Under the pieces are notes generated by a model. The model searched no databases. It saw nothing but the letters and a program-made list of their open reading frames with translations, and was not told the origin of the DNA. From an uncultured Chloroflexia bacterium (lineage in GTDB: Bacteria > Chloroflexota > Limnocylindria > Limnocylindrales > CSP1-4), in NCBI GenBank assembly GCA_963813535.1, contig CAWEZH010000002.1:1888001-1952000 (forward strand): a stretch of 64,000 bases of DNA, read 5' to 3'. Every line of letters begins with the position of its first letter. Positions within the stretch are counted from its first letter, which is position 1. Positions 862 to 54,009 of this stretch are shown one piece after another. The translations under genes were made by a program, and so were the position numbers.

Positions 862-2598
862 GCGGCGGCCTCCGCCTCGGACAGCTGCGAGTACACGATC
901 TCCCGATAGGTCTCGTTCGAATTCGAGCAGCTCGTCGTGCTTGCCCATGCCGACGATCCGCCCGCCGTCCATCACGATGATCCGGTCGGCCCGCATGATC
1001 GTCGCTACGCGCTGGGCCACGATGATCACGGTGGCGCGTTCGAGCTCACCGGCGAGTGCCGCGCGCAGGCGCGCATCGGTCGCGACGTCGAGGGCCGAGA
1101 AGCTGTCGTCGAAGACGACGATGTCGGCGGCGCGCACGATCGCCCGGGCGATCGCCAGCCGCTGGCGCTGACCGCCGGAGACGTTCGTGCCGCCTTGTGC
1201 GATTGGTGACTCCAGCCCGGCGGGCATCTCGGCCACGAAGTCACGGGCCTGGGCCGTGGTCAATGCGCGCCACAGAGCCTCGTCGGACGCGTCCGCGTCC
1301 CCGAACCGCAGGTTGCTGGCAACGGTGCCGCCGAAGAGGAATGCCTTCTGCGGGACGAGCGCGATGCGCTTCCACAGGGCGTCGCGGTCCTGGTCGCGCA
1401 CGTCCACGCCGTCGACGAGCAGGGTTCCCGCCGTGATGTCGTAGAAGCGCGGGATGAGGTTGATCAAGGTGGTCTTGCCCGATCCGGTACTGCCGACGAT
1501 GGCCGTCGTCTCACCCGGCGCGGCCGTGAACGACAGATCGCGGAGCACCGGGTCCTCGGCACCGGGATACCGGAACTCGACGCCCCGGAACTCCACGACC
1601 CCACGCTGGTCGGGGTCCGATGGGACGACCGGCGAGTCGGGGTCGTGGATCATCGGCTGGGTCGCGAGGACCTCGTTGATGCGTCCAGAGGAGACAGCCG
1701 CTCGCGGGATCAGGATGAACATGAACACGGCGGTCAGGACCGCGAAGAGGATCTGGGTCAGGTACTGCAGAAAGGCTGTCAGGCTGCCGATCTGCATCGC
1801 GCCCTCGGCCACCCGCATCGCGCCGAACCACACGACGGCGACGGTGGAGAGGTTGAGGATCGCGGTCATGATCGGGATCGTCACCGCGAACAGCCGGCCG
1901 ACCCGCAGGGTCGTGTCGTACAGGTCGCGGCTCGCGACGTCGAAGCGCTCTTCCTCGTGACGCGTCCTGACGAATGCGCGGATGACCCGCACGCCGGCAA
2001 GCGTCTCGCGCATTACCTGGTTGATCCGGTCGATCATGGCCTGGGTCGCCTGGAACAACGGGATCGCGCGTGACATCACGAGCCCGATCACGAGCGCCAT
2101 CAAGGGCAGGACGACGACGAGCAGCCCCGATAGAGCGACGTCGGTCCGGAGCGCCATGATGATCCCGCCGACGATGAGGAGAGGTGCGGACACGATCACC
2201 GTCAGACCCAGGAACACGACGATGAGGACCTGCTGGACGTCGTTCGTGTTGCGCGTGATCAACGACGCTGGACCGAAGGTGTTGACCTCGACCTGCGAGA
2301 ACGTCTCGACCTTGGCGAAGATCGCCCGCCGGACGTCGCGCCCGAAGCCCATGGCGATCCGGGCACTCAGGTAGACCCCGATCACGGCCGCGATGCCGAG
2401 CACCGCCGTGACGAGCAGCATCAGCCCGCCGACCCGGAGGATGTAGTCGGTATCGCCCTTCACGACGCCGTTGTCGATGATGTCGGCATTGAGGACCGGC
2501 AGGTAAAGGTTCCCGAGGGCTTGCACGAGGAGCAGCACGAGCACGACGGCGATCTGCGCCGCATACGGTCGAAGGAACCGCCGGAACAAGGTGATCAC
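858..2598 (-). CDS. ABC exporter, fused permease/ATPase subunit A (apparent +1 frameshift near 921)
   Basis: GTG 2598 MITLFRRFLRPY...LYLPVLNADIID; Walker A GSTGSGKTT; signature VSGGQRQRL; FDDSFSALD. The expected C-terminus (SNETYREIVYSQLSEAEAAA-TGA at 858-860) lies in a shifted frame. Confidence 0.88.
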
Positions 2599-12830: not shown

Positions 12831-13634
12831 TCATCTGCCGGTCCAGGTCGGTGGTCGTTTCTCCTGGAATGCGCGCATCCCTTCGCGCTGGTCGTCGGTC
12901 GCAAAGAGGTCGAAGAATGCCTCACGCTCGGCGCGGAGGCCGGCGCTCAGCGGCAGCTCGGCCGCCGCGAGCACGGAACGTTTGGCGGCACGCACCGCGA
13001 GCGGCGGCATCGCTGCGATGCGGTCGCCGAGCTCGAGCGCCGCATCGACGACATCCGCCGCCGGCGCGATCGACGTCACGAGGCCGGTCGCGTGCGCCTC
13101 GGCCGCGCCCATCGTCCGACCCGTCAGCACCAGCTCCATGGCGCGTGCCAGCCCGACGGCCCGTGTCAGCCGCTGGGTCCCGCCGGCGCCGGGCATGACG
13201 CCGATGCGGATCTCCGGCTGACCGAACTGCGCGTCGTCACCCGCGACGATGAGGTCGCACGTCATGGCCAGCTCGCAGCCACCACCCAGCGCGAAGCCGC
13301 GGACCGCGGCGATGAGGGGGATACCGATCGCGCCGAGCCTGTCCCACGCGTCGAAGTTGCCCTCGGATCGCAGACGCTCAGGGGTCTGGTCGGCCAGCTC
13401 GACGATGTCGGCGCCCGCCGCGAAGGCCCGGTCGCCCGCGCCCGTGATGACCACGACACGCGTCAGGCCATCCCGATCCATCTTCTCGAGCTCGTCGGCC
13501 AACTCGGCCAGCAGCGTGAAGCTCAGCGCATTGCGCGCCTCGGGTCGGTCGATCGTCGCCAGCGCCACGCCGGTGTGGCCCTCGACCGGGGCATCGACGC
13601 GGATGAAGCGGGTCGTCGGCATGGCGTCGGTCAC
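12831..13634 (-). CDS. paaF: Enoyl-CoA hydratase (2,3-dehydroadipyl-CoA hydratase-like)
   Basis: AFAAGADI, GFALGGGCELAMTCD, FGQPEIRIGVMPGAGGTQRL with both catalytic Glu; start could be 13640 or 13634. Confidence 0.85.
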   Translation of the reverse strand: MTDAMPTTRFIRVDAPVEGHTGVALATIDRPEARNALSFTLLAELADELEKMDRDGLTRVVVITGAGDRAFAAGADIVELADQTPERLRSEGNFDAWDRLGAIGIPLIAAVRGFALGGGCELAMTCDLIVAGDDAQFGQPEIRIGVMPGAGGTQRLTRAVGLARAMELVLTGRTMGAAEAHATGLVTSIAPAADVVDAALELGDRIAAMPPLAVRAAKRSVLAAAELPLSAGLRAEREAFFDLFATDDQREGMRAFQEKRPPTWTGR

Positions 13635-13730
13635 GCGCACTCCTCGCGGCTCGTCGGGCAAGTATCCACGACCCGGGAAGTCGGCACCGGGCGTCCAACC
13701 GCGTTGCGGGCCACGACGGCGGCCTCTGTC

Positions 13731-37266: not shown

Positions 37267-37704
37267 TTAGAGGATCCGCTCGTCGCGGGCGTCCGATGCG
37301 TCGACGATCGTCGTGCAGGTCGGACAGAAGTAGCGAGCCTCGAGTGGCGTCCCGCAGACGCCATGCCGCAGCGGCTCGACGTCGTTCGAGCGGCGGGCAC
37401 CCCAGTCCGCGAGCAGGCGCAACGCCGATGCGAGGGCGCGACCGTCGGCGGTGAGCTCGTATGCGTACCGCGTCGGACGCTCCTGGTAAGGGCTTGACCT
37501 GAGGATGCCTGCCCGCTCGAGTCGGCGCAGGCGGTCGGTGAGGATGTTCGGCGCGATCCCTGGCAGTGCCTCGCCGAGGTCACCGAACCGGCGAGACCCG
37601 TCGAGCAGCGCTTCGACCAGCAGGAGGCTCCATCTGTCACCGACCCGGTCGAGGGCGGCCTCGAGCGGCAGCGGGCGACGATCGGTGGACGTGGTGTCGG
37701 TCAT
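37267..37704 (-). CDS. HxlR family transcriptional regulator
   Basis: ALDRVGDRWSLLLV...RRFGDL...ILTDRLRRLE...YELTADG; C-terminal HxxCG...CPTC. Confidence 0.9.
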   Translation of the reverse strand: MTDTTSTDRRPLPLEAALDRVGDRWSLLLVEALLDGSRRFGDLGEALPGIAPNILTDRLRRLERAGILRSSPYQERPTRYAYELTADGRALASALRLLADWGARRSNDVEPLRHGVCGTPLEARYFCPTCTTIVDASDARDERIL

Positions 37705-37753
37705 GGTCGGTCGATGGTAGCCGGTGGGAGGACTTGTCAGACGGACGTGTCGG

Positions 37754-37773
37754 TAGTAACTTGCAAGTCACTA
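37754..37773. promoter_or_regulatory. Inverted repeat, probable HxlR operator
   Basis: TAGTAACTT-GC-AAGTCACTA (one mismatch), an AT-rich island between divergent hxlR and protease genes. Confidence 0.65.
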
Positions 37774-37810: not shown

Positions 37811-38716
37811 ATGGGCAGCATCGAAGAGCTCGGCACGTCGATCGCCGCGGTCGCCGACCGCGTCGGACCGTCGATCGTGGGGGTCGGTCGGGACGGCCGC
37901 GGGTCCGGCGTCGTCGTCGCCGACGGCCAGGTCCTGACCAACGCGCACAACCTTCGTGGTCGTGAGGTCACCGTCACGTTCAGCGACGGGCGCTCGACCC
38001 GTGGTGAGGTCCGCGGCGTCGACCCGGATGGCGACCTTGCAGTCATCGCGGTCGACACGGCCGGATCCACGGCCATCGCCTGGGGTTCCGGGGATGGGGC
38101 GTCGATCGGCGACCCTGTGTTCGGCGCGGCGGCGACCTACGGCGGCGGCACACGCGTCACGGTCGGCTTCGTGTCGTCGGTCGCGCGTTCGTTCCGCGGA
38201 CCGGGTGGCCGGCGCATCTCCGGAAGTATCGAGCACACCGCTCCGCTGGCACCGGGCTCGTCTGGCGGGGCGCTGGTCGACGCCGAGGGCAAGCTGGTCG
38301 GTCTCAACACGAACCGGATCGGCGAGGGGTTCTACCTGGCCTTGCCGGCCGAAGCAGGTCTGCAGGCCCGCATCGAGGCGCTGGGCAAGGGCGAATCGGT
38401 CGAGCGGCCGCGGCTCGGTGTCGCGATCGCGCCGAACCACGTCGCGCGCCGCCTGCGCCGTTCGGTGGGGCTGCCGGAGCGTGACGGGATCCTGGTCCGG
38501 GGCGTCGAGGACGGCAGTGCCGCCGCCTCGGCGGGTGTCGAGGTCGGCGACCTGATCGTTTCGGCCGGCGGCCGGCCGATCGCCGACGCGGATGATCTGC
38601 AGGACGCGCTCGGGAGCCTTGATCTGCCGTACGACCTGGTCGTCGTGCGGGGCGCGGACGAGATGACCCTGAAGGTCACCGCTGCCAAGCAGGAGCGCAC
38701 ACCGGGCGACGCATGA
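37811..38716 (+). CDS. HtrA-like S1C serine protease with PDZ domain, no signal peptide
   Basis: GSGVV, LTNAH, DLAV, PGSSGG catalytic triad; PDZ RLGVAI...GDLIVS. Confidence 0.9.
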   Translation: MGSIEELGTSIAAVADRVGPSIVGVGRDGRGSGVVVADGQVLTNAHNLRGREVTVTFSDGRSTRGEVRGVDPDGDLAVIAVDTAGSTAIAWGSGDGASIGDPVFGAAATYGGGTRVTVGFVSSVARSFRGPGGRRISGSIEHTAPLAPGSSGGALVDAEGKLVGLNTNRIGEGFYLALPAEAGLQARIEALGKGESVERPRLGVAIAPNHVARRLRRSVGLPERDGILVRGVEDGSAAASAGVEVGDLIVSAGGRPIADADDLQDALGSLDLPYDLVVVRGADEMTLKVTAAKQERTPGDA

Positions 38717-41687: not shown

Positions 41688-41711
41688 CGGGGGAGTGTAG
41701 ACTGCGCCCCC

Positions 41712-42344: not shown

Positions 42345-43417
42345 GCGGACACGCTGCCACCACGCCGCTGATCCTCGATGTCGACACGGGCATCGACGAC
42401 AGCCTCGCGCTGCTCTACGCGGTCGCGTCCCCGGAGGCCGAGATCGTCGCGGTGACGTGCGTGTCCGGCAACGTCGAGGCGCGGCAGGTCGCGACGAATA
42501 CCCTCGCCGTGCTCGAGCTGGCCGGTCGCACCGACATCGACGTGGCCGTCGGGCGCGAGATCCCTCTCGTACGGGCGCTCGAGACGACGCCCGAGACGCA
42601 CGGCCCGGCGGGCATCGGCTACGGGGAGCTGCCAACACCGCGGCGCCCGGTCGGCGACCGTCACGGCGTCGACGTGATCGTCGATGCCGCTCGCGCTCGG
42701 CCCGGTGAGATCACCCTGGTCACCCTCGGCCCGCTGACCAACCTCGCGGTCGCACTGGAGCGCGAACCCGCCCTGCCGCGCCTGCTGCGACGGCACGTGC
42801 TGATGGGCGGCGCGTTCGGTGCTCCCGGCAATACGACCCCGACCACCGAGTGGAACGTCCATTGCGATCCGGAAGCGGCGCGGATCGCCTTCCGGGCCTG
42901 GGGCGAGGCCATCGCCGCGGACCCGTCGGTGCCACGACCGCTCGCTCTCGGCCTCGACGTCACCGAGCAGGCGCGGATCGGGCCCGAGCACGTGGTCGCC
43001 CTCGCCCGCCGCGCCGGCAGCACGCCCGACGATTCGCTGGGCACGCCCGCCGACGACCCGCTCGCGCCGGCTCGCTCGGTCGCGTCGAACGCGATCATCC
43101 GGTTCGTCGCCGACGCCCTGCGCTTCTACTTCGAGTTCCATGAACGCTATGACGGCTTCTACGGGGCGTTCATCCACGACCCGCTGGCGGTCGCCGCGGC
43201 CCTCGACCCGCGGCTCGTCACCACCGAGGCGCTCTACGTCGACGTGGAGACGAGCGGCGAGCTGACGACCGGCATGACCGTCGCCGACCGTCGGCGGCTC
43301 ACCGGGAAGCCACCGAATCTCGACGTGGCAGCGACTGCCGACGTCGAAACGTTCCTCGATCGCATGATCGAGCGGGTGGGCAGCCTTGCCGCCGATCGGG
43401 CCGGCGTCCCGACGTAG
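42341..43417 (+). CDS. Inosine/uridine-preferring nucleoside hydrolase family
   Basis: DVDTGIDD, ETHG, LGPLTNLA, EWNVHCDPEAA, GLDVT, HDPLA. Confidence 0.93.
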   Translation: MSGHAATTPLILDVDTGIDDSLALLYAVASPEAEIVAVTCVSGNVEARQVATNTLAVLELAGRTDIDVAVGREIPLVRALETTPETHGPAGIGYGELPTPRRPVGDRHGVDVIVDAARARPGEITLVTLGPLTNLAVALEREPALPRLLRRHVLMGGAFGAPGNTTPTTEWNVHCDPEAARIAFRAWGEAIAADPSVPRPLALGLDVTEQARIGPEHVVALARRAGSTPDDSLGTPADDPLAPARSVASNAIIRFVADALRFYFEFHERYDGFYGAFIHDPLAVAAALDPRLVTTEALYVDVETSGELTTGMTVADRRRLTGKPPNLDVAATADVETFLDRMIERVGSLAADRAGVPT

Positions 43418-43451
43418 CCGGACCGCGCGGGCGGCGGCTCGCCATCTCGAC

Positions 43452-43850
43452 CTAGCGCCCCCGGCCGACGACCAGCAGCAGGAACGAGGTCTCGATCACG
43501 TCGATGCCGGCGATGACTGCGGCGATGATCAGCGGCAACGGGTTGGCCAACGCCCAGCCGACACCGGCAGCGAACGCCGCCACGGCGAGGAACGCCAGCC
43601 TGACGGCGCGGATGAGACCCGGGACGTCGGTCTGGCCGGATGCCTCCATGCGCGACACCGAGCGCATGAGCAGCATCACCCCGACGGCCACGGCGACCCC
43701 GACCAGGAACGCGCGCACCAGCGGCGGCGGGCTGACGATCGCGTCGAGCCATCCGGCGTTCCAGCCGGCCACCGTGGCGAGGACGACCGCGAGGAGCCCG
43801 AGCGCGATAGCGATCGACGCGCCGAGCCGTGGCCGAGACGCCTGCGTCAT
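43452..43850 (-). CDS. Hypothetical membrane protein (about 4 TM)
   Basis: ATGA-coupled to mec; four hydrophobic segments. Confidence 0.65.
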   Translation of the reverse strand: MTQASRPRLGASIAIALGLLAVVLATVAGWNAGWLDAIVSPPPLVRAFLVGVAVAVGVMLLMRSVSRMEASGQTDVPGLIRAVRLAFLAVAAFAAGVGWALANPLPLIIAAVIAGIDVIETSFLLLVVGRGR

Positions 43851-44311
43851 CCCTCGACGACGTCGAGGACCACCTCGTGGACCGACTCGTCGACGATCCG
43901 CCACGCCCTGACGCTCGGCGTACCGGAGGCCGGATCGGCCTCGTCATCCGACAGCGAGACCAGCACGTACAGCGCGTCCGGATAGAACGCCAGGCCCACA
44001 TCCGTCGGTGAGGGCACCGCGGGCGAGTGCGTGTGCGAATGGACGATGCCCCAGAACACCTCGTCGGCATCATCGGTGGCGACGGTCAGCCGGAACAGGT
44101 CGTCCGGATGGATCTCGTAGCGGTACGGGGAGCCGGCAGCGTTGCGGGTCGGCTCGAACCGGAGCGCTCGGCCGCCGGCTGCCGCCGGACCGTCGCCCAC
44201 GATGAGCCCGCACGCTTCGTTCGGGGCGCCCGCGCGTGCGTGGTCGATGAGTGACTGGACCATCGTCGCCGGGATCGCGGCTGCCGCCGGACCGGGATGG
44301 ACCGGGATCAC
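43847..44311 (-). CDS. mec: JAB/M67 metallopeptidase (CysO-cysteine peptidase)
   Basis: PNEACG and HSHTHSPAVPSPTD JAMM motif; downstream of cysM. Confidence 0.9.
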   Translation of the reverse strand: MIPVHPGPAAAAIPATMVQSLIDHARAGAPNEACGLIVGDGPAAAGGRALRFEPTRNAAGSPYRYEIHPDDLFRLTVATDDADEVFWGIVHSHTHSPAVPSPTDVGLAFYPDALYVLVSLSDDEADPASGTPSVRAWRIVDESVHEVVLDVVEG

Positions 44312-45321
44312 CACCAGTTGACGCCGCCCTCGAGTGCCTCCTGCATCTCGTCGAAGGAGGTCGTGAACGTGCCGGCCGACAGGTACTTCCACCCGCCGTC
44401 CGGAAGGAGGGCGACGATGGTCCCCGCCCGCATGCGGGCCGCCTCGCGTGCAGCCGCGACCAGCACGGCTCCGCACGACGGACCGCCGAAGATGCCCTCG
44501 CGGAAGACCAGCTCGCGAAGGGCGGTCAGGGCGTCGAGGTTCGAGACGAGGTACTTCGCATCGAGCGCCTCGGGCTCGAGGATCTCGGGGATGAACCCCT
44601 CGTCGAGGGAGCGGAGACCCTGCACCTGCTCACCGGGCAGAGGCTCGGCGGCCACGATGCGGACGCCCGGCTTGTGCTCGCGCAGGAAGCGCGACACGCC
44701 CATCAACGTGCCGGCAGTCCCAAGGCCGGCGACGAAGACGTCGATCTCCGGGCAGTCGGCCAGGATCTCCGGACCGGTCGTCTCGTAATGCGCCTGCGGG
44801 TTCGCGGGATTGCCGTACTGGTACGGCATGACGAAGCGGTCGTCCTTCCCGACGAGGTGCTTGGCGAGCGCGATCGCGCCGTTCGAACCGAGCGCGCCCG
44901 GCGAATCGATGACCTCGGCGCCGAACAGGGCCGCCATCTGCCGACGTTCGTTCGTCACGTTGTCGGGCATGACGAGGGCGACTCGATAGCCCTTGCGGCG
45001 ACCGATCATCGCGAGCGCGATGCCGGTGTTGCCGGACGTCGGCTCGAGGATGATCGAGTCGTCGCGGAGCAGCCCGCGCTCCTCGAGGTCCTCGATGAGG
45101 TACTTCGCGACACGGTCCTTGACCGACCCGGTCGGGTTGAGCATCTCGAGCTTGGCGAAGATGCGCACTGACGGGTTCGGACTCATCCGCGGGATCTCGA
45201 CCAGCGGCGTATGCCCGATCGCGTCGAGGATGTCCGCGTAGCGGCCGCCGTGGGGCGCCAGGTCTTCGTGAGCGTGGTGATGGTCGTGGGCGGCCTCGTC
45301 GATCCGCCACGGGACGGCCAC
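44308..45321 (-). CDS. cysM: PLP-dependent cysteine synthase, CysO-thiocarboxylate type
   Basis: AKLEMLNPTGSVKDR, EPTSGNTG, YQYGNPAN, GLGTAGT, PDGGWKYLS; flanked by cysO and mec. Confidence 0.9.
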   Translation of the reverse strand: MAVPWRIDEAAHDHHHAHEDLAPHGGRYADILDAIGHTPLVEIPRMSPNPSVRIFAKLEMLNPTGSVKDRVAKYLIEDLEERGLLRDDSIILEPTSGNTGIALAMIGRRKGYRVALVMPDNVTNERRQMAALFGAEVIDSPGALGSNGAIALAKHLVGKDDRFVMPYQYGNPANPQAHYETTGPEILADCPEIDVFVAGLGTAGTLMGVSRFLREHKPGVRIVAAEPLPGEQVQGLRSLDEGFIPEILEPEALDAKYLVSNLDALTALRELVFREGIFGGPSCGAVLVAAAREAARMRAGTIVALLPDGGWKYLSAGTFTTSFDEMQEALEGGVNWW

Positions 45322-45322
45322 G

Positions 45323-45595
45323 TCAGCCGCCGGCCATCGCCGGCAGGAGCCGGACCTCGTCGCTCCCGGCCACCGGGGTATCGAGACCGGCGAGGTAGCG
45401 TACGTCCTGCCCGTTCACGTAGACGTTGACGAACCGGTTGAGGTCACCATCGTCCGTCAGCAGCTGACCGCCGAGCGACGGATGCCGCTCGATCAGGCCG
45501 TTCACGACCGTGCGGATGGAGTCGCCCTCGATCACCACCGACTTCGCGCCACCAACGGTCGCGCGAAGGACGGACGGGATGTAGACGGTGCTCAC
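45323..45595 (-). CDS. cysO: Ubiquitin-like sulfur carrier (MoaD/CysO)
   Basis: VYIPSVLR...RFVNVYVNGQDVRYL...LPAMAGG with C-terminal GG. Confidence 0.9.
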   Translation of the reverse strand: MSTVYIPSVLRATVGGAKSVVIEGDSIRTVVNGLIERHPSLGGQLLTDDGDLNRFVNVYVNGQDVRYLAGLDTPVAGSDEVRLLPAMAGG

Positions 45596-46818
45596 GCGCG
45601 CGCCTCGGGCGAGACCGAACCGGCCAAGCCGGTGGTCGTCATGAGGAACGGCGCGTCACCACCGACATTCGCGACGGACGACGGGCGCCCGGCCTTGCGA
45701 GCCTCGACCGCGGCGTCCGAGCACACCGGGCACTGCGGGTCGCGCCGGAGCTGCAACTCGGTGAACTCGGTCTCGAGCGCGTCGAACAGCACGAGCCTAC
45801 CGGCGAGCGTGTTGCCGATACCGAGCAACACCTTGAGCGCCTCGTTGGTCTGGAGGAGACCGAGGATGCCGGGAACGACCCCAAGCACGCCCGCGACCGA
45901 GCAGCCCGGGGCGAGCTCGGGCGGTGGCGGGGTCGGGTACAGGCAGCGATAGCACGGCCCCTCGTAGGGGATGAACGTCGTGAGCTGGCCCTCGAAGCGG
46001 AAGACGCTCGCGTGCATGACCGGGATGCCGGCAGCGACCGCGGCATCGTTGAGGACATAGCGCGTCTCGAACGTGTCGGTGCCGTCGAGGATGACGTCGT
46101 AGCCCTCGATGAGCCGCTGCACGTTGTCGGCCGTCAGCATCTCCTCGTGCTCGACGACCTTCACGTCCGGGTTGAGGGCATTGATCGCGATCCGTGCCGA
46201 CTCGACCTTGCGTTCGCCGATCCGGTCGGTGGTGTGGATGATCTGGCGCTGGAGGTTGCTGAGGTCGACGACGTCGAAGTCGACCAGGCCGATCGTGCCG
46301 ACACCGGCCGCGGCCAGATACAGGGCGGCCGGGCTGCCCAGGCCGCCGGCGCCGATGAGCAGCGCCTTCGACTCGAGCAGCTTCTGCTGCCCAGCCGATC
46401 CGACCTCGGGGATCAGGAGATGGCGGCTATAGCGCTGCTTCTGCTCCGGGCCCAGGACGACGGGCGTCTCGAAGTCGAAGCCCGCGCCCTTCCAGCCCTG
46501 GAAGCCACCGGACATGCTCGCAACATCGGTGTAGCCCATGTCGGCCAGGGTCTGGGCGGCGAAGAGTGAGCGGATGCCACCCGCGCAGTACAGGATGACC
46601 GGGGCGTCGTGGTCCGGCGCGGCGGCCTCGATCTGCTGCTCGATGTAACTCTTCGAGACGTGCTGGGCGCCAGGGATGTAGCCCTGATCCCACTCGGACG
46701 CCTCGCGCACGTCGACGATCGTCGCGGCGCCGGCCGGCAGGGATTCGACCTCCTGGGGCGTGACCTCGCGGATCTGGCTGCGGGCCTCCCGAAGGAGGTC
46801 GGCGTAGGACTTCGGCAT
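45592..46818 (-). CDS. moeZ: Rhodanese-MoeB fusion sulfur-carrier adenylyltransferase/sulfurtransferase
   Basis: N-terminal rhodanese (DVREASEW, YCAGGIRS); RYSRHL, GAGGLGSP, SNLQRQ, CYRC, CPVC. Confidence 0.9.
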   Translation of the reverse strand: MPKSYADLLREARSQIREVTPQEVESLPAGAATIVDVREASEWDQGYIPGAQHVSKSYIEQQIEAAAPDHDAPVILYCAGGIRSLFAAQTLADMGYTDVASMSGGFQGWKGAGFDFETPVVLGPEQKQRYSRHLLIPEVGSAGQQKLLESKALLIGAGGLGSPAALYLAAAGVGTIGLVDFDVVDLSNLQRQIIHTTDRIGERKVESARIAINALNPDVKVVEHEEMLTADNVQRLIEGYDVILDGTDTFETRYVLNDAAVAAGIPVMHASVFRFEGQLTTFIPYEGPCYRCLYPTPPPPELAPGCSVAGVLGVVPGILGLLQTNEALKVLLGIGNTLAGRLVLFDALETEFTELQLRRDPQCPVCSDAAVEARKAGRPSSVANVGGDAPFLMTTTGLAGSVSPEARA

Positions 46819-46907
46819 GGGGCTGATGGTGACTCCGGTGTTCGACGGGCTGGCTCGCGCATGGCGGCCAGGGCGGTGGTGGGGCTGGGGTCGCGACGCG
46901 CGCCGGC

Positions 46908-46952
46908 TCAGGCCGGCCGGCGACACCTGCAGCGGCGCTCGATCCCGTTCAC
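46908..46952 (-). CDS. Candidate Cys-containing leader peptide MNGIERRCRCRRPA
   Basis: GTG 46952 overlaps the sufU stop (GTGA), with GGAG upstream; Cys codons TGC and TGT; sits in the leader of moeZ-cysO-cysM-mec. Confidence 0.55.
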   Translation of the reverse strand: MNGIERRCRCRRPA

Positions 46953-47356
46953 GCCTGGCTCCCCTGGGCCGTCGCGCTCTCGCGAGCGACACCGAGGTCG
47001 CCAAGGACATGCTGGAGGCTCTCGTGGCTGAGCATCGCGCACTTGAGGCGCGCGGGGCTGATGTCGATGCCGAGCAGCTCGAGCAGGTCGTCTGCGCCGA
47101 TCGCCGCCACGTCCTTGAGCGGCTTGCCCTTGATCTCGTCGGTCAGGAGGCTCGCGCTCGCCTGGCTGATGGCGCAGCCACGGCCGGTGAACCCGACGCG
47201 ATCGACGACGCCGTCCTTGACACCGACCATGAGCGTGATCCGATCGCCGCACAGCGGGTTCGAACCCTCATAGCTGGCATCGGCATCCTCGACCACCCCG
47301 AAGTTGTGGGGCTGGCGATAGTGCTCGAGGATGTAGTCGCGGTACAGGTCGTCCAT
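46949..47356 (-). CDS. sufU: Fe-S assembly sulfur-transfer/scaffold protein SufU/IscU
   Basis: LYRDYILEHYRQPHNFG, NPLCGD, GCAISQASAS, RLKCA. Confidence 0.92.
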   Translation of the reverse strand: MDDLYRDYILEHYRQPHNFGVVEDADASYEGSNPLCGDRITLMVGVKDGVVDRVGFTGRGCAISQASASLLTDEIKGKPLKDVAAIGADDLLELLGIDISPARLKCAMLSHESLQHVLGDLGVARESATAQGSQA

Positions 47357-47383
47357 CGAACATCGAGTGTAGCGCGGAACGGC

Positions 47384-47408
47384 AATCCCGACCACTGGGG
47401 TCGGGATT
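47384..47408. promoter_or_regulatory. Palindromic operator, probable Rrf2 site upstream of sufU
   Basis: AATCCCGA-N9-TCGGGATT, overlapping the -35 region of the sufU promoter (-10 TACACT at 47371-47366). Confidence 0.7.
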
Positions 47409-47546
47409 ATCTGGATCTGCTGGTTCGAACGCTTGGCGATGCCTCGGGTCGGGCGCACGTGCGTCGCGGGGCCTCGGTGCCTGCCTGCAACGGACCGTTG
47501 TGCCGCCCTCGCTGGTACGAGCGGACAGGCGCCCACGGGTGGGTCC

Positions 47547-48848
47547 GTGGCTATCGTCTTGGGGGTGGCCACGAACGTCGCAGACGCCCTAGGCGTCGCC
47601 CTCGGCGGACTCGCGCAGAAGCGCGGGCTGATCCCGCGCGTCCCGGACGGCGATCGGTTGCTGGCCGATGCCGCCGTCTGGCTGAACGGCGAGTACGCCG
47701 ACGCCGTCCGCTCCACCCACCAGCGGACGCTGCCTGGCGGCGAGATCGCGCTGGCGGTCGACCTCCATCCCGCCGCGTCCCCGCTCCTCCTGACCGCGGA
47801 CGACGAGGGGCGTGTCACGGTCGCGGCCGAGACCGGCGCCGCGGGTCCCGGCTATCACCGCTTCGTCGGTCGAGTCCTCGAGCGACTCAGCGGGGAGCTC
47901 GCCATCCAGTGGACCGATGGCGACGGCGCGACGGCGTTCGTCGACCGCCAGGGAGCGGAGCAGCTCTACCTCGGCTGGCTGGGTCCGCAGCTTGCCGCGT
48001 CGCTGGCGCGAGCGCGGCGCGGCGAGCGGGGCATCCCGCTCGGGATGCCGGGCGGGACGCGCGTCACGACAGAGGCGGCGATGGCGACCGTGATGGGTCC
48101 GCGCGACGAGGCCTGGCTCGAGGCGGCCATCGCCGATCCGCGGGTCGCCCTGGGCATGACGCCGTGGTGGGCCGACGCGACCGATGGTCAGTATCTCCTC
48201 AACAGGGCACTCGTGCTGATGTGGCTGCAGGTCCGCTGGCGGACGCCGGCGATGGAGGGCGAGGCCGACCTGTTCGACGAAGTCCATCGACTGCTGTCGC
48301 GCGCCTATCCGTTCGATCCCGGCCTCGAGTACCCGTGGCACGCATGGACCGAGTTGACGGGGCTGCGCGGCATCGACGACCCGATGGCCCGCCAGGCCGC
48401 TGAGCGCGCGAGCGCGGTCTCCCCGGAGGACCCGCCGGTGGGCTATCGCCGCGACTCGGTGGTCATCAGCCACGAGGGCTGGGCGCTCGAGGTCCCGGGG
48501 GCGTTCGCCGAGCGCCGTTCGCCCGAGGAATGGTGGGGTGGCGGCACGGGCCGGAGCATCACGCTGGCCGCGACGGCGACGGGCGACGCCGACGGGACGC
48601 CGATGGGTGCCCACGATTTCATCGACCAGTTCGCGGTCGACCTCGGGCCGGATGCGATCGCGCATCGCTCGGGCGAGGTGCTGGGCCGGGCGAGGCTCGT
48701 GACCGACGCCTCCTCCGGCGTCGAGGTCGGGATCCTCGAGGGCTACTCGGCGGTGAGCGGCTCGGGCGCTGCGATCAAGATCGAGTTCGATGACCCGGCC
48801 GACTGGCAGTGGGCCCTCGACATGTGGCGGTCGCTCGCCCCGGGTTGA
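47547..48848 (+). CDS. Hypothetical protein (about 433 aa)
   Basis: Long ORF with genome-like codon usage, Trp-rich, filling the space between sufU and flp; start uncertain. Confidence 0.75.
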   Translation: MAIVLGVATNVADALGVALGGLAQKRGLIPRVPDGDRLLADAAVWLNGEYADAVRSTHQRTLPGGEIALAVDLHPAASPLLLTADDEGRVTVAAETGAAGPGYHRFVGRVLERLSGELAIQWTDGDGATAFVDRQGAEQLYLGWLGPQLAASLARARRGERGIPLGMPGGTRVTTEAAMATVMGPRDEAWLEAAIADPRVALGMTPWWADATDGQYLLNRALVLMWLQVRWRTPAMEGEADLFDEVHRLLSRAYPFDPGLEYPWHAWTELTGLRGIDDPMARQAAERASAVSPEDPPVGYRRDSVVISHEGWALEVPGAFAERRSPEEWWGGGTGRSITLAATATGDADGTPMGAHDFIDQFAVDLGPDAIAHRSGEVLGRARLVTDASSGVEVGILEGYSAVSGSGAAIKIEFDDPADWQWALDMWRSLAPG

Positions 48849-48863
48849 CCGTGTGGGTAGGCC

Positions 48864-48892
48864 GCCGGTGCCCTCCCCTCGCGGGCACCGGC
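48864..48892. terminator. Hairpin between convergent genes
   Basis: GCCGGTGCCC-N9-GGGCACCGGC; no U-tract. Confidence 0.45.
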
Positions 48893-48903
48893 CGCCCGCG
48901 GGA

Positions 48904-49074
48904 TCAGACCGAGTTGCTCACGGTCGTAATGATGTGGCTGACCTGGCTCCCGAGGAAGATGAGGGCCACGATGGCGATGATCGCGATCAGCGCGAGGATG
49001 AGGGCGTATTCGGCCAGTCCCTGACCGGCATCGCCGTTGGCGATCCGCAGCCGCGCGTTCCGGAACCGTTCCAT
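48904..49074 (-). CDS. flp: Flp family type IVb pilin
   Basis: MERF...AG/QGLAEYALILALIAIIAIVALIFLG: prepilin Gly, E5 and Y6; SD CAGGAG. Confidence 0.92.
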   Translation of the reverse strand: MERFRNARLRIANGDAGQGLAEYALILALIAIIAIVALIFLGSQVSHIITTVSNSV

Positions 49075-49214
49075 GACAATCTCCTGCTGGGTGCCTCGTC
49101 GCCGAGGCCGCACCCGGTTTTCGACCGGGCGCCGGCAGCATCACGTCGCTCGGGCGGTGCCCGAAATCGGGGTTCTGACGGGGTACGCGTTGCGGGTCGT
49201 CCCGCAATGTCTGA

Positions 49215-50522
49215 TCAGACCGCCGGCCAGTCGAAGGTCACGATCGTGCCGATGCCGCCGTCACGGCGACCGGAACGAACCGATGCCCCGCACAGCTTCG
49301 CCTCGGTGACCATGTCGGCCAGACCCCGCCCGCCGTCCCTCAGGGCCACACCCTCGGTATCGACCGGGAGACCCGGTCCGTCGTCCTCGATGCACAGGCG
49401 GAGGTGGTCTGCGCCCGCGGCGACCACGAGCCTGACCGTCGCGTCCGGGGCGTGGCGCATCACGTTGTCAAGTGCCAGCGTGGCGACTCGCAGCGCGGCC
49501 CGGTCGACGTCGGTCGGGGGCGGCCCGGGGCGTGGTGCCGGACCGTCGGCGACATCGATGGTCACGCGGACGCCCGATCGGTCCTCGACCCGCTCGGCCA
49601 GCGACTCGAGCGCCGGAACCAACCCGCCGATCTCGAGACCGATCGCGTCGCGCGTCTCGATCATCGCTTCGATCTGCTGGAAGGCCTCTCGGAGCGAGCG
49701 GGCCAGGCGATCCACCGAGCCGACACGTTCTGCCTCACGAATCGCGCGCCGCAGGTCCGGCACGACGACCGCGTGCAGGTCACGGGCGATCCGCGCGCGT
49801 TCCGTCATCGCCGCTCGCCGCTCACGTGCCCGACTCGGGGTGAGCTCCTCGCCGAAGGCTCGGAGCCAGTCGATGACGTAACGGATCGCGCCGCTGGCGC
49901 CCGCAGATCGGCCGCGTTCCGTCGCAAGGCGTCGTGTCGCGCGACCAGCTGCGGGTCGAAGGTCGCTCGCCAGCCCAAGGACCACCAGGCCGACCGTGAT
50001 CAGGAGGAACGCTCGCGTCACGAGGCGCAGGTCACCGAGGGGCGAGACGCCGCCGACCGTGGCGGTCTCCGGGTCCGGGCTCGCGATCGCCCACAATCCG
50101 ATCGCGAACACGGCAGCCACGGCGCCCACCCCCAGCACCGCCAGACCGGGCGGCGGCCGTCGCGCGGGATCCGACGCATATCCGGCTGCCGCAGCGACGG
50201 CACCCGAGGCGGCCAGGACGAGCGCGATGGCGATCCAGCGCCACGTGTCGGCAGGGATCAGAGGGCGCTGTTCGCGGGCGAACGTCGCGAGGTCGATGGT
50301 CATCGTGGACAGCGCCAGGATCAACGCGAGCCACGCTGCCGTGGGATGGCGCCGGACGGTGAGACCGAAGACGCACAGCGCTGCGGCCGCGATGAGGAGC
50401 GGCAGCATGGCTTCCGGGGACGTGCTCGACCTGCCTCCGACCGAGATCCGAAGGACGCCCAATGCGACGACAAGCCCCAGCGCCCAGATACCGAGCAACG
50501 CGCCAAGCCACGGCCGGCTCAT
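49215..50522 (-). CDS. Membrane sensor histidine kinase (HisKA_3 type)
   Basis: About 6 TMs; ERARIARDLH; LDNVMRHA, IEDDGPG, GRGL. Confidence 0.85.
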   Translation of the reverse strand: MSRPWLGALLGIWALGLVVALGVLRISVGGRSSTSPEAMLPLLIAAAALCVFGLTVRRHPTAAWLALILALSTMTIDLATFAREQRPLIPADTWRWIAIALVLAASGAVAAAAGYASDPARRPPPGLAVLGVGAVAAVFAIGLWAIASPDPETATVGGVSPLGDLRLVTRAFLLITVGLVVLGLASDLRPAAGRATRRLATERGRSAGASGAIRYVIDWLRAFGEELTPSRARERRAAMTERARIARDLHAVVVPDLRRAIREAERVGSVDRLARSLREAFQQIEAMIETRDAIGLEIGGLVPALESLAERVEDRSGVRVTIDVADGPAPRPGPPPTDVDRAALRVATLALDNVMRHAPDATVRLVVAAGADHLRLCIEDDGPGLPVDTEGVALRDGGRGLADMVTEAKLCGASVRSGRRDGGIGTIVTFDWPAV

Positions 50523-51181
50523 CGGTGCTGCCGTCGATCCGCCGCCCAGCCTTCCTCGATGGCGAGCACCGCCAGTTCGGTCCGGGACAGCAACCCGTAG
50601 CGATCGAAGAGGCGGCGCAGATGGCTTTCCACGGTCTTCTCCGAAAGACCGAGGGCGGAGGCGATCTCGGCGTTGGTGGCGCCCTCGACGATCAGGCCGA
50701 TGACTTGCAGTTCGCGATCAGATGGCCGCCGACGTGCGTCGCGCGAGCCGTGGAGTGCCGCCGCCGAGTAGGCCGTGCCGCCGCCGGCGAGCGTGCGGAT
50801 CGCGGCGACGATCTCGTCGAGGTCGGCTGATTTGTCGAGGTAGCCGGACGCACCGTCGTCGAGCGCGGCGCGGATCAGAGAGGGGTAGCCGTATCCGGAC
50901 AGGAACAGGACCGCCGGGACCGCATCGCTCCGCTCGGCACGCGGGTCGTTGATCGCGCGAAGGACGTGCAGGCCCTCGGCGCCTCCCGCCAGGTTCATGT
51001 CGCACACGAGAACATCGACCATGGACGCGAGCCCGATGGCCTCATCGACGGTTCGTGCCGTTCCGATCAGGTCGAGGTCCGCGCTATCGCCGACGGCTGA
51101 CGCGATCGACGCGAGGACTGTCGGATGGTCGTCGACCACCCCGACCCGTACGAGGCGGCGGGAGGTGCGGTCGTCCCTGAT
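50519..51181 (-). CDS. NarL/LuxR family response regulator
   Basis: VRVGVVDDHP, VCDMNL, GYLDK, SDRELQVI..GATNAEIA..LSEKTVESH; start uncertain (GTG 51139 or ATC 51181). Confidence 0.9.
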   Translation of the reverse strand: MRDDRTSRRLVRVGVVDDHPTVLASIASAVGDSADLDLIGTARTVDEAIGLASMVDVLVCDMNLAGGAEGLHVLRAINDPRAERSDAVPAVLFLSGYGYPSLIRAALDDGASGYLDKSADLDEIVAAIRTLAGGGTAYSAAALHGSRDARRRPSDRELQVIGLIVEGATNAEIASALGLSEKTVESHLRRLFDRYGLLSRTELAVLAIEEGWAADRRQHR

Positions 51182-51291
51182 GTCAGCCCCCTCTCCGATG
51201 ACGGCAGCCTAGCGCCACCAGAGTGCCGGGGATCCTCCCGCGCTCACATCCGGTGGAATCCCGCAACGGCAGGATCAACCGAGGGCGAGGG

Positions 51292-52551
51292 CTACCGGTC
51301 GAAGAGGCGCGAGACCTCCTGCAGACCGGTCGCGAGACGGTCGATGTCGTCGGTCGTCGTATAGACGCTGAAGCTCGCGCGGGCGGTGGCCGCAAGATCG
51401 AGACGCTCGTGGAGGGGCATCGTGCAGTGGTGCCCGGCACGGACGGCGATGCCGTACCGATCGAGCACCTGCGCCACATCGTGCGGATGGATGCCCGGCA
51501 GGTTGAACGGGACGACACCGCCCCGACGGTCCGGGTCGAGTGGCCCATAGAGCTCGATCTGCGGCACCTGGCGTGGCAGCACATCGAGGGCGTACGTCAC
51601 GAGCGACCGCTCGTGCTCGCGGACGGCATCCATACCCAGGCCCATCAGGTAGTCCGCCGCGACCCCGAGCCCGATGGCATCGGCCACGGCCGGCGTCCCC
51701 GCCTCGAACTTCCAGGGCACCTCGTTGAACTCGCTGCGCCGGAGGTGGACCTCCCGGATCATCTCGCCACCGGCGAGGAACGGGGGCATCGACTCGAGCA
51801 GCTCCCGTCGCGCCCACAGCGCGCCCGAGCCCATCGGCGCCAGCATCTTGTGGCCGCTGAAGGCGTAGAAGTCGCAGCCGATCTCCTGGACGTCGACGGG
51901 CACGTGCGGCACGGCCTGGGCACCGTCGACGAGGACCAGCGCCCCCGCCGCATGGGCCATCTCGGTCATCTCGCGGACCGGGTTGATGGTGCCCAGCGTG
52001 TTCGAGACGTGCGTGAACGCGACCAGCTTCGGCTTGAGACGGAGCAGCACCTCGAAGACATCGAGGCGCAGCTCGCCGTCATCGGTGATGGGGATGAACT
52101 CGAGGTCGCCGTCCTGTTCCTGCACGAGGAGCTGCCACGGGACGAGGTTGGCGTGATGCTCCATCTCGGTCAGGACGATCGCATCGCCGCGCGAGATGTT
52201 GCGCCGGCCCCACGAGTACGAGACGAGGTTGATCGCCTCGGTCGCGTTGCGGGTGAAGACGATCTCGTGGCTGTCGGGGGCGTTGATGAACCGAGCGACC
52301 GTGGCTCGCGCCGCCTCGTACGCCGCCGTCGCGCGCTCGCCGATCGTGTAGATCCCGCGATGGACGTTGGCGTTGTACTCGCGGTAGTAGTCGGCGACCG
52401 CGTCGATCACGACCGCCGGCTTCTGGCTGCTCGACGCGGAGTCGAGGTAGGTCAGGGGATGGCCGTTGATGATCTGCGACAGGATCGGGAAGTCGCGGCG
52501 CAGCGCGACCGGGTCGAGGGTGGGCCTGGGAGTGGACGCCTCGACGGCCAA
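51292..52551 (-). CDS. sufS: Cysteine desulfurase SufS
   Basis: YLDSASSSQKP, ANVHRG, EHHAN, DGAQ, SGHKM, FEAGTP, RAGHHC. Confidence 0.95.
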   Translation of the reverse strand: MAVEASTPRPTLDPVALRRDFPILSQIINGHPLTYLDSASSSQKPAVVIDAVADYYREYNANVHRGIYTIGERATAAYEAARATVARFINAPDSHEIVFTRNATEAINLVSYSWGRRNISRGDAIVLTEMEHHANLVPWQLLVQEQDGDLEFIPITDDGELRLDVFEVLLRLKPKLVAFTHVSNTLGTINPVREMTEMAHAAGALVLVDGAQAVPHVPVDVQEIGCDFYAFSGHKMLAPMGSGALWARRELLESMPPFLAGGEMIREVHLRRSEFNEVPWKFEAGTPAVADAIGLGVAADYLMGLGMDAVREHERSLVTYALDVLPRQVPQIELYGPLDPDRRGGVVPFNLPGIHPHDVAQVLDRYGIAVRAGHHCTMPLHERLDLAATARASFSVYTTTDDIDRLATGLQEVSRLFDR

Positions 52552-52565
52552 TGTCGTGCGCCCGG

Positions 52566-53477
52566 CTAGCGGGCGGCCTCCACCGGCTCGCGGTCGAGGT
52601 CGAGGTCCGGACCCTTGGGCACGAGGAGCGCCTCGTCCGGGAGCTCAGGCTCGAGACCAGCGGCACGCAGGATCGGGCCGTAGCCCTCGTCCTCGAGCCG
52701 GAGCGCCAGCTCGCGGCCACCGCTCTTGACGATGCGGCCCTGGGCGAGCACGTGGACGACGTCCGGCTTGATGTGGTTCAGCAACCGCTGGTAGTGCGTG
52801 ATCAGCAGCACGCCGAGGTTCGGGTTGAGCATCGCGTTGACGCCCTCGGCGACGATCCGCAACGCGTCGATGTCGAGGCCGGAGTCGGTCTCGTCGAGGA
52901 TCGCCATCTCGGGTTCGATGACCGCCATCTGCAGCATCTCGAGTCGCTTCTTCTCGCCGCCGGAGAAGCCCTCGTTGACGTAGCGGCTGGCGAAGCCCTC
53001 GTCCATCCGGAGAAGGGCCATCTTCTCGCGCATCTTGGTGCGGAAGTCGCGCATCGACACGCCGCCCTTGACCGGATCGGTCGGGTCGATGTCGGCGTCC
53101 TTGTCGATGCCCTGCAGCTTGGCGTTCAGCGCGCTCCGGATGAAGGATGCGACGCTCAGGCCGGGGACGGCCGTCGGGTACTGGAATGCGAGGAACATGC
53201 CGAGGCGGGCGCGCTTGTCCGGCGACAGCTTGAGGATGTCGCGGCCCTTCCAGAGGACTTCGCCTGCGGTGACGACGTAGGCCGGGTGGCCCATCAGCGC
53301 ATACGCGAGCGTCGTCTTGCCCGAGCCGTTGGGGCCCATGATCGCGTGGACTTCGCCCTTCCCGACCGTCAGGTCGATCCCCTGGAGGATCTCCTGGTCG
53401 GGATGGCCGAGCGGCGCGACACGCAGGCCGCGGATGACGAGTTGCTGGTCGGAGGCGGCGGTCGACTGGTCGGTCAC
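52566..53477 (-). CDS. sufC: Fe-S assembly ATPase SufC
   Basis: MGPNGSGKTT, FLAFQYP, NEGFSGGEKKR, LDETDSGLDIDAL, ITHYQRLL. Confidence 0.95.
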   Translation of the reverse strand: MTDQSTAASDQQLVIRGLRVAPLGHPDQEILQGIDLTVGKGEVHAIMGPNGSGKTTLAYALMGHPAYVVTAGEVLWKGRDILKLSPDKRARLGMFLAFQYPTAVPGLSVASFIRSALNAKLQGIDKDADIDPTDPVKGGVSMRDFRTKMREKMALLRMDEGFASRYVNEGFSGGEKKRLEMLQMAVIEPEMAILDETDSGLDIDALRIVAEGVNAMLNPNLGVLLITHYQRLLNHIKPDVVHVLAQGRIVKSGGRELALRLEDEGYGPILRAAGLEPELPDEALLVPKGPDLDLDREPVEAAR

Positions 53478-53932
53478 GGGGTGATCAGGGCTCCTTGGGG
53501 GTCGTCGACGGAGGCGACGCGCGGTGGGGCGAGGTCGGCGAGGGTCATCGAATCGAGCGTCGAGGTGATCGCATCGCGCACACGCACCCAGAGGATGTTG
53601 ACCGTGCAGCGCGACGAACGGTCGCAGGTCGTGGCGTGTTCCGGGTCGTCGGTCGCGCAGAACATCGGGGCGATCGGACCTTCCAGGGCGCGGAGGACCT
53701 CGCTCATCGGGATCAGGCCCGGCGCCCGCGTCAGCTCGTAGCCGCCATGGGCGCCGCGAGTGCTGACGACGAGTCCCGCCTCGCGCAGGTTGACGACGAG
53801 CTGCTCGAGGTACGCGCGCGGCAGGTCCTCCTCTGCCGCGATCCCGGCCAGGCTGGCCGGCCCGGTGCCGTAGTGGCGGGCGAGCTGCACCATCAACCGC
53901 ACGCCGTACTCGCCCTTCGTCGAAAAGGACAC
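53474..53932 (-). CDS. Rrf2 family regulator with three Cys (IscR-like)
   Basis: STKGEYG, YLEQL, STRGAHGGYEL, LEG...C-x10-C-x5-C. Confidence 0.92.
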   Translation of the reverse strand: MSFSTKGEYGVRLMVQLARHYGTGPASLAGIAAEEDLPRAYLEQLVVNLREAGLVVSTRGAHGGYELTRAPGLIPMSEVLRALEGPIAPMFCATDDPEHATTCDRSSRCTVNILWVRVRDAITSTLDSMTLADLAPPRVASVDDPQGALITP

Positions 53933-54009
53933 GGCGCCTGAGCCGTGGTAGGCCGGGCGCTGGGCGGGCTGAGGCTGGGAGCCGGTCGTGGCAGTCAGGG
54001 CGGAAGGAC

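Follow-up and report, generated by a model that had tools for sequence, protein, structure and literature searches.

The window analysed here is a stretch of 64,000 nucleotides from an uncultured Chloroflexia bacterium (contig CAWEZH010000002.1, positions 1,888,001 to 1,952,000), with a G+C content of 70%. Its minus strand carries five consecutive genes, which encode SufU, a MoeZ-like protein, a ThiS carrier, a PALP synthase and a JAB protease. Between sufU and the moeZ-like gene (moeZ in the following) lies a 14-codon open reading frame (ORF) with two cysteine codons, here called the mini-ORF, followed by a spacer; together they form the leader of moeZ. The original prediction, made from the letters of this DNA, saw in it a cysteine-responsive attenuator located inside the operon. 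A conserved Cys-codon ORF, coupled to sufU within a conserved leader, is well supported by the comparisons reported below.

The sufU–moeZ junction

The mini-ORF reads GTG AAC GGG ATC GAG CGC CGC TGC AGG TGT CGC CGG CCG GCC TGA, and its GTG (46952-46950) overlaps the sufU stop codon as GTGA. The coordinates thus confirm the 14-codon minus-strand frame that had been proposed to start on the sufU stop. The two Cys codons, TGC (46931-46929) and TGT (46925-46923), are separated by AGG. In the genes of the window, cysteine represents 0.73% of the codons, TGT accounts for 15 of the 129 Cys codons and AGG for 7.7% of the Arg codons; UGC-AGG-UGU joins a rare Cys codon and a rare Arg codon. The spacer between the mini-ORF stop and the moeZ ATG measures 89 nt (46907-46819). 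All features of the region are listed in Table 1.

Table 1. Genes and leader features of the sufU–moeZ region (positions within the window)
Feature	Position	Strand	Description
sufU	46949..47356	-	ATG 47356, stop TGA 46951-46949, 135 aa
Shine-Dalgarno-like hexamer GGGGAG	46959..46964	-	6 nt before the mini-ORF GTG, within the last sufU codons
mini-ORF	46908..46952	-	14 codons, MNGIERRCRCRRPA, GTG 46952, stop TGA 46910-46908
hairpin 1	46890..46924	-	GUCGC-CG-GCCGGC / loop CUGA / GCCGGC-G-CG-(CGUC)-GCGAC
C-rich, G-poor spacer	46819..46891	-	from hairpin 1 to the moeZ start
hairpin 2	46850..46871	-	CUGGCCGC / loop / GCG-A-GCCAG
conserved box UCGAACACC, then moeZ Shine-Dalgarno GGAG (46836-46833)	46833..46845	-	14 nt before the ATG
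moeZ-like	45592..46818	-	408 aa, N-terminal rhodanese + ThiF/MoeB adenylyltransferase
cysO-like sulfur carrier	45323..45595	-	90 aa, ThiS/MoaD fold, Pfam ThiS
cysM-like cysteine synthase, pyridoxal-phosphate-dependent	44308..45321	-	337 aa, Pfam PALP
mec-like JAMM/JAB metalloprotease	43847..44257	-	136 aa from ATG 44257, Pfam Prok-JAB E 1.1e-19

SufU matches Pfam NifU_N (E 1.4e-24) and the NCBIfam SufU equivalog TIGR01994 (109.3 bits, for a cut-off of 92.5). The MoeZ-like protein carries a Rhodanese (21-111) and a ThiF domain (130-365). It passes NCBIfam NF006444 (544.7 vs. 449) and falls below the cut-off of the MoeZ equivalog NF005902 (357 vs. 647). Its ATG at 46818 corresponds to the start MPKSY found in 110 of the 120 MoeZ relatives among the matches listed. 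The CysM-like protein reaches 327 bits with the NCBIfam cysKM subfamily, under the cut-off of 344. The cysteine-metabolism genes that follow the mini-ORF lie on the same strand, with stops and starts overlapping or adjacent; the GTG start of the cysO-like gene overlaps the moeZ stop as GTGA. These genes are the gene set of the CysO-type cysteine pathway and, given their Pfam and NCBIfam matches, the names moeZ-cysO-cysM-mec chosen in the original prediction are functionally apt.

Taken alone, the sequence of the window is suggestive but not significant. An overlap of the RTGA type between a start and a stop codon is present at 26 of the 59 genes of the window (16 GTGA and 10 ATGA) and is the usual means of coupling for real gene pairs in this genome, e.g. 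moeZ with cysO or Rrf2 with sufC. Most of the starts that overlap in this way are those of real genes lying downstream. Short ORFs with such an overlap, of 15 codons each, were also observed after 12831..13661 and after 37811..38716. At least two Cys codons occur in 8 of the 112 short ORFs of the window (10-20 codons), and CC or CxC in none of the 112. From the Cys codon frequency of 0.0217 over all frames, we estimated the chance of CC or CxC at about 1% per 14-codon frame, which is not compelling across 64 kb. Moreover, Arg/Cys-rich off-frame ORFs are usual at 70% G+C. The early caveat that two Cys codons could be fortuitous is therefore sound for a lone sequence, but loses most of its weight once conservation is counted: the mini-ORF is lifted above chance because it is conserved in relatives.

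Conservation of the mini-ORF in relatives

The closest genome is a Candidatus Limnocylindrales metagenome-assembled genome (class Limnocylindria, Chloroflexota). One search of genome contigs with MoeZ yielded 80 loci. Among these fetched loci, sufU lies directly upstream of moeZ in only one (L001), with a MoeZ identity of 91%. Overall identity between the window and L001 amounts to 84% across 5.4 kb. Over the 45 nt of the mini-ORF, 44 positions are identical, the sole change being GAG>GGG (E>G), while identity at third codon positions is 57-76% in the five flanking genes. Stretches of 57 nt with at most one mismatch are found at 4 places in the 5426 aligned positions; the mini-ORF is one of them and the other three are inside coding regions. 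The leader is therefore under selection, since such stretches are so few and the mini-ORF is nearly identical between genomes that differ this much at third positions. The rest of the spacer, properly gapped, shows 7 substitutions and two 2-nt indels. Upstream of the mini-ORF, the last 6 SufU codons are conserved and the SufU tail ahead of them carries a 12-nt indel; L001 has GGGGAC where the window has GGGGAG. Neither the window nor any of the other 79 loci contained a further copy of the element.

We also used protein collections as read-outs of non-annotated frames. For the mini-ORF frame, the query was a 114-residue off-frame translation ending in the mini-ORF, then the tail of its best match. 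Four SufU predictions (P0121, P0127, P0128 and P0129) slip into the mini-ORF frame and end with ERRCRC(R/L)(P/Q)PA and a stop. Their tails end with ...RMIGPSPRATTAIERRCRCRPPA, ...RMTRIERRCRCRQPA (twice) and ...GMTPITPRNERRCRCLPPA, all stopping there. P0121 reads M-IGPSPRATTA-IERRCRCRPPA, P0127 and P0129 read M-TR-IERRCRCRQPA, and P0128 reads M-TPITPRN-ERRCRCLPPA. In each of the four, a Met precedes the E of ERRCRC by 3, 3, 7 or 11 codons, and the next residue is Thr or Ile. As the codons for Thr and Ile both begin with A, the DNA at this Met can only be ATGA, i.e. a start codon overlapping a TGA of the next frame, like the GTGA of the window. The 4-nt overlap typical of termination-reinitiation is thus GTGA in the window and L001 and, by this reasoning, ATGA in the four predictions. 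In P0127, the off-frame stretch from the conserved part of SufU to this Met has 25 residues, as in the window, and this TGA is therefore placed at the end of sufU. An exhaustive search of representative proteins with the 114-residue translation gave 5 matches, of which only P0121 reached the core.

The two Cys codons, the stop codon and a TGA-overlapping start are kept in all six readable sequences (the window, L001 and the four predictions), and the Cys pattern is C-R-C in every case, never CC. The N-terminal part of the mini-ORF and the SufU tail change length, yet the mini-ORF retains its start, frame, stop and overlap with the sufU stop. The absence of the ORF or of its Cys codons from relatives, which would have spoken against the original prediction, was looked for: the ORF and both Cys codons are kept in 6/6 sequences and the C-rich spacer in 8/8. 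Given the start/TGA overlap kept in 6/6, the proposed re-initiation by ribosomes coming from sufU is a reasonable reading.

A second query, the moeZ frame extended upstream, found predicted N-termini running through the leader. Five of these read-outs reach the core, four as (P)DRAPLQVS-x-AG(L/V) and the fifth (P0010) as RRAPLRVS; two further ones begin at (V/M)S-x-AGL. In the seven relatives as in the window, ASPS(T/N)(T/I)G-like residues directly precede MPKSY, and 30-41 variable residues lie in between. These residues correspond to the conserved box (46833..46845), which is identical in L001 and read as ASPS(T/N)(T/I)G in 8/8 moeZ-frame read-outs. The same nucleotide blocks are read in different frames: HRPGRH in the window appears as TALAA in P0003, P0007 and P0100. 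Similarly, AGLSRRA in the window is replaced by AG(L/V)TPAR in P0002, P0003 and P0007, which fits a 1-nt insertion in the loop of hairpin 1 in these three relatives. Since conserved nucleotide blocks appear in different frames, with an indel-tolerant spacer between them, the moeZ frame is not coding across the leader. An N-terminally longer MoeZ is ruled out by the common MPKSY start, the variable length of the upstream read-outs and the blocks that shift frame. Two putative SufU-MoeZ fusions (P0003 and P0004) were discarded as evidence, both proteins containing frameshift junk elsewhere. Read-outs of frames far from the core are unreliable, as the contigs carry indels. Combined, the two frames would fix about 21 nt around the Cys codons, third positions included, to the sequence of the window.

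The leader RNA

Hairpin 1 (local fold of -23.3 kcal/mol) holds the stop codon of the mini-ORF in its CUGA loop and belongs to the RNAalifold consensus computed from the window and L001. Its inner 6-bp arms look invariant in the read-outs of all relatives, and the variable sites of the mini-ORF seem to cluster at its stem junction and loop. At the DNA level, GCCGGC-N4-GCCGGC is also a repeat with a 10-bp spacing. Hairpin 1 is followed by CCCCAGCCCC and not by a U-run. Hairpin 2 also belongs to the consensus; its local fold reaches just -7.4 kcal/mol and its loop holds three adjacent substitutions between the window and L001.

The C-rich leader of about 90 nt announced ahead of moeZ is real. The segment 46897..46820 contains 39 C and 19 G, which ranks it at the 99.8th percentile when all 78-nt windows of the two strands are compared, and the segment 46891..46814 has a C/G ratio of 2.35, the third highest of the non-overlapping windows in the 64 kb. 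In the read-outs, the spacer shows a C:G ratio of about 2:1 at determinable codon positions in 8/8 relatives, for a length of 90-123 nt. Other extreme C-over-G windows on the minus strand are located at 37757..37680, 53545..53468 and 52523..52446 (C/G 2.3-2.7). Two of these fall at the Rrf2/sufC and sufC/sufS junctions.

Besides the two hairpins, the RNAalifold consensus comprises a hairpin across the Cys codons and a long-range helix between the start regions of the mini-ORF and of moeZ (GGCGUG/CAUGCC and CGGG-A-UCGA/UCGA-A-C-A-CCG). For another candidate helix, GGUGUCG:CGA-N-CACC, the pair probability reaches 0.16 at most in the window and 0 in L001; the variation among relatives would be compatible with this pairing, although weakly so. 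Both helices could sequester the Shine-Dalgarno sequence, the latter by pairing the core with the box that precedes it, the long-range one by pairing the 5' part of the mini-ORF with this box and the AUG, and neither of them beat shuffled or genomic controls. When a ribosome was masked at Cys8, at Cys10 or at the stop, the shifts in accessibility of the moeZ start were modest and inconsistent between the window and L001. No stable alternative fold of the leader was found. A slippery heptamer allowing a -1 frameshift from sufU into the mini-ORF frame was searched for by eye and none was seen, and no rho gene was detected among the 57 window proteins scanned against Pfam.

The Rfam search of window positions 40000-54000 (E<=1) gave no match at threshold, with only npcTB_6715 and ilvB-OMG below it, and none was found in L001. 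The sub-threshold match to npcTB_6715, a small RNA of Mycobacterium, lies inside moeZ (46381..46550, minus strand; 26 bits for a gathering threshold of 72, E 0.0025) and probably reflects coding-sequence similarity. Among 20 loci, Rfam retrieved just SAM riboswitches (S-adenosylmethionine; L043 and L072) and a cobalamin riboswitch (L043). The SAM riboswitch of L043, an uncultured Megasphaera, is located at 2082..2180 (91.7 bits), ahead of a ThiF-type gene and after a Cys-rich short ORF. In this ORF (1955..2023), MRYLKILTIICCSCRMCSYQRV, a run of seven residues includes four Cys, and AGGAG lies 9 nt ahead of it. The arrangement may represent an independent leader of the Cys-codon type, joined to a riboswitch.

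Readings of the mini-ORF and known systems

We favour the reading of a sufU-coupled, translated regulatory mini-ORF in a conserved leader with a cysteine-responsive output, that is a full attenuator, and give it a probability of roughly 0.4. Cysteine sensing by this leader and the involvement of Rho are plausible, and the mini-ORF is a credible candidate for a cysteine-sensing switch. Ribosomes terminating on sufU would re-initiate on the mini-ORF, where charged tRNA-Cys would govern their dwell time on UGC-AGG-UGU. While held at the Cys codons, a ribosome would prevent both hairpin 1 and the 5' part of the leader from folding and raise the expression of moeZ-cysO-cysM-mec at low cysteine; a ribosome stalled at codons 8-10 is expected to cover the 5' arm of hairpin 1 and to end near the stop codon. 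With plentiful cysteine, the ribosome would depart at UGA and the leader would refold, leaving the untranslated C-rich spacer open to Rho, or moeZ initiation poor. In its precise form, a relay in which sufU ribosomes re-initiate on a C-R-C ORF of 14-22 codons and their dwell gates the hairpin and a spacer suited to Rho, this mechanism is possible rather than probable.

Several results weigh against the attenuator. Neither terminator-like nor sigma-70-like promoter sites were detected in the region 45300-47900, in a scan that may be insensitive in this organism, as nothing was found upstream of sufU either. The leader is not more stable than its shuffled versions (z = +1.20 and +1.14), which fits a C-rich unstructured tract. 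In the RNAalifold consensus, there are 0 compensatory pairs and two one-sided changes that keep pairing. The duplex between the mini-ORF core and the moeZ initiation region (-22.9 kcal/mol) is matched by 29% and 23% of the shuffles, and the one between the 5' part of the mini-ORF and the moeZ start region (-15.3 kcal/mol) by 44% and 39% of the shuffles and by 69% of 3199 genomic 39-mers. Moreover, the C-rich tract would lie about 20 nt beyond the edge of a ribosome stalled at codons 8-10. The Cys codons are only two and non-adjacent, a weak match to known attenuators. Upstream of the moeZ/cysO clusters of the other loci with at least 260 nt of upstream sequence, Cys-clustered short ORFs are not in excess (7/186, compared with 11/159 on the opposite strand). 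The conservation itself comes from thin sampling, with only two full DNA sequences; the relatives beyond L001 are visible solely as read-outs of mis-framed predictions on contigs carrying indels, and all relatives are close (91-97% identity within the 75 N-terminal residues of SufU, from 42/46 to 73/75). Finally, the core looks invariant at the nucleotide level, third codon positions included, so that the constraint would not be (only) on the Cys codons: of the 5 relatives whose moeZ-frame read-out extends to DRAPLQVS, 4 show it unaltered, and the changes in the mini-ORF are all nonsynonymous (E>G, R>P/Q and R>L). The attenuator thus keeps the conserved, sufU-coupled Cys-codon ORF and the C-rich spacer claimed for it at the outset, and loses the support that a terminator, or a pairing with the ribosome-binding site beyond that of shuffles, would have given.

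The alternative that survives best is a non-coding RNA or DNA element in which the ORF is incidental, for instance an intercistronic structure for mRNA stability, processing, partial termination or protein binding. A core invariant beyond coding needs, the stability of hairpin 1 with its invariant inner arms, the probable clustering of variable sites at its junction and loop, the 10-bp-spaced GCCGGC repeat and nucleotide blocks lying in different frames (HRPGRH vs. TALAA), as is typical of non-coding RNA, all speak for it. It leaves unexplained why an in-frame start overlapping a TGA, with no intervening stop, is present in 6/6 sequences at a changing distance. The element also occurs just once in the window and in none of the other 79 loci, it matches no Rfam family and its overall folding is no better than that of shuffles. 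We consider this explanation doubtful.

The mini-ORF could also be a constitutive coupling device, whose translation carries ribosomes through hairpin 1, the Cys codons being just conserved RNA sequence and no sensor. It would keep the leader open, shield it from Rho or RNases, or set the SufU:MoeZ ratio. RTGA coupling is frequent in this window, and with its stop in the hairpin loop, any ribosome translating the mini-ORF melts hairpin 1. The two-Cys signal is weak, and no structure separates a stalled ribosome from a passing one. This explanation is unlikely, however, as every readable relative retains two codons for such a scarce amino acid, including the rare TGT, directly ahead of cysteine-synthesis genes, and a plain coupling device needs no spacer of 90-120 nt. 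A functional micropeptide is improbable: a basic CxC peptide of 14-22 residues that would bind a metal or a persulfide, or partner SufU or the rhodanese domain of MoeZ, agrees with an invariant ERRCRC...PA core behind a variable N-terminus and with a position between two sulfur-transfer genes, but the core has no synonymous variation and its C-terminal residues coincide with a hairpin arm. Chance, i.e. an off-frame ORF of G+C-rich DNA kept only through close kinship, is disfavoured and very improbable, for although RTGA overlaps and Arg/Cys-rich off-frame ORFs are common and the relatives close, 44/45 nt are identical against 57-76% at neutral-like third positions and four more relatives retain the ORF, with N-termini that differ in length.

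Regarding known systems, Cys-codon short ORFs of mycobacteria regulate cys operons through stalled ribosomes (the "Cys ribulon"; Canestrari et al., bioRxiv 10.1101/834739), and experiments on Ms5788A indicate that the Cys codons and their nucleotides both matter (10.1101/834739). The mycobacterial polycysteine ORFs resemble the mini-ORF in several respects: the Cys codons are near the 3' end of the ORF, upstream of cysteine-metabolism genes in the same operon, and the leader between ORF and gene measures 97 nt there and 89 nt here. The proposed sensor is in both cases a ribosome slowed at Cys codons, and nucleotide sequence as well as codon identity is constrained. This double constraint in the mini-ORF fits an Ms5788A-like control, and equally an RNA element with an incidental ORF. 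The mycobacterial ORF is leaderless and the first cistron, whereas the mini-ORF starts on the sufU stop with GGGGAG 6 nt upstream, a layout shared by L001. The former has at least two consecutive Cys codons (up to eight) and the latter C-R-C; the mycobacterial Cys tract pairs with the Shine-Dalgarno sequence of the next gene, while no pairing better than shuffles was found here; and the phyla differ (Actinomycetota vs. Chloroflexota). We therefore did not place the mini-ORF in the mycobacterial family, as it is neither leaderless nor a first cistron and lacks consecutive Cys codons. The parallel drawn in the original prediction is thus correct for the position upstream of cysteine-metabolism genes, but does not extend to the leaderless start and consecutive Cys codons.

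In Actinobacteria, cys leader peptides have been predicted that carry Cys codons close to the stop and lack a terminator, and a Rho-dependent output was proposed for them by analogy with tna (Seliverstov et al. 2005, PMC1262725). These leaders share with the mini-ORF the Cys codons near the stop and the absence of a terminator hairpin. They differ from it by their runs of Cys codons and their location at the 5' end of a cys or cbs operon, whereas the mini-ORF is intra-operonic, its two Cys codons are spaced and a strong hairpin after them encloses its stop.

The tnaC-tnaA leader of Escherichia coli is Rho-dependent and controlled by a leader peptide, tnaC sensing free tryptophan via the nascent peptide at its stop codon. 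The order is similar at our locus: the stop of a short ORF, a long untranslated spacer suited to Rho loading, then the regulated gene. The tna-type C-rich, G-poor tract is present after the mini-ORF stop (C/G 2.35 over 78 nt, and C-rich in 8/8 relatives). Unlike the free tryptophan of tnaC, the candidate signal here would be the decoding of Cys codons. Like the trpL leader peptide, the mini-ORF has 14 codons, two of which specify a rare amino acid, and is directly followed by a hairpin; unlike trpL, it shows neither a U-run terminator nor an evident alternative hairpin pair, and it would be fed by re-initiation from the upstream gene.

Outside the junction, sufU is apart from the sufS and sufC of the window (51292-53477), from which it is separated by a two-component system and an opposite-strand gene encoding 471 aa. 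The latter (47433..48848, plus strand) is divergent from sufU, has about 84% nucleotide identity in L001 and gave no match in Pfam or NCBIfam. About 30 nt ahead of the sufU ATG, the sequence ATCCCGACC-N5-GGTCGGGAT (47385..47407) forms a perfect inverted repeat of 9 bp, which overlaps a GATAAT hexamer at the 3' end of the latter. The repeat is single-copy in the window and, like the hexamer, is conserved in L001, the sequence further upstream being not alignable. This repeat could be an operator or the 5' stem-loop of a sufU-moeZ transcript. The rhodanese domain of the MoeZ-like protein is N-terminal (NF006444), while it follows ThiF in L039, L041, L044, L048, L049 and others; the comparison opposed loci L001-L030 to these loci, which come from many other phyla. 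Four MoeZ relatives of 491-502 residues (P0006, P0008, P0033 and P0087) also have ThiS and were read as MoeZ-CysO fusions, which may be real or due to read-through of assembly errors. In the window, sufU sits with the CysO-type cluster, and SufU-like genes are also present 1.7-1.9 kb upstream of cysO-moeZ in Anaerolineae and Caldilineaceae loci (L013, 384-731, and L014, 192-539). The proximity of SufU to CysO-type clusters hints at a sulfur relay from SufU to the rhodanese.

Our full-text literature search, in which few subscription journals are covered, gave no description of such an element for Chloroflexota among the papers listed. To our knowledge, mycobacteria with their leaderless polycysteine ORFs are so far the sole demonstrated case of cysteine control sensed by the ribosome. 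If the attenuator reading is true, the mini-ORF would be the first amino-acid-sensing leader peptide in Chloroflexota, and the first one fed by termination-reinitiation instead of its own 5' end. It would tie cysteine supply directly to the translation of sufU, a cysteine-consuming Fe-S gene. A conserved Cys-codon mini-ORF of different design, in an uncultured Chloroflexota lineage of freshwater and soil, would point to more than one origin of this logic, and would also show that such ORFs can lie between genes, fed by re-initiation, where gene callers and searches for leader peptides never look; mis-framed predictions in large protein sets can be mined for such non-annotated frames. Moreover, the physical and translational link between a SufU-type sulfur-transfer gene and the CysO/MoeZ pathway would give a hint on the sulfur source or balance of this pathway.

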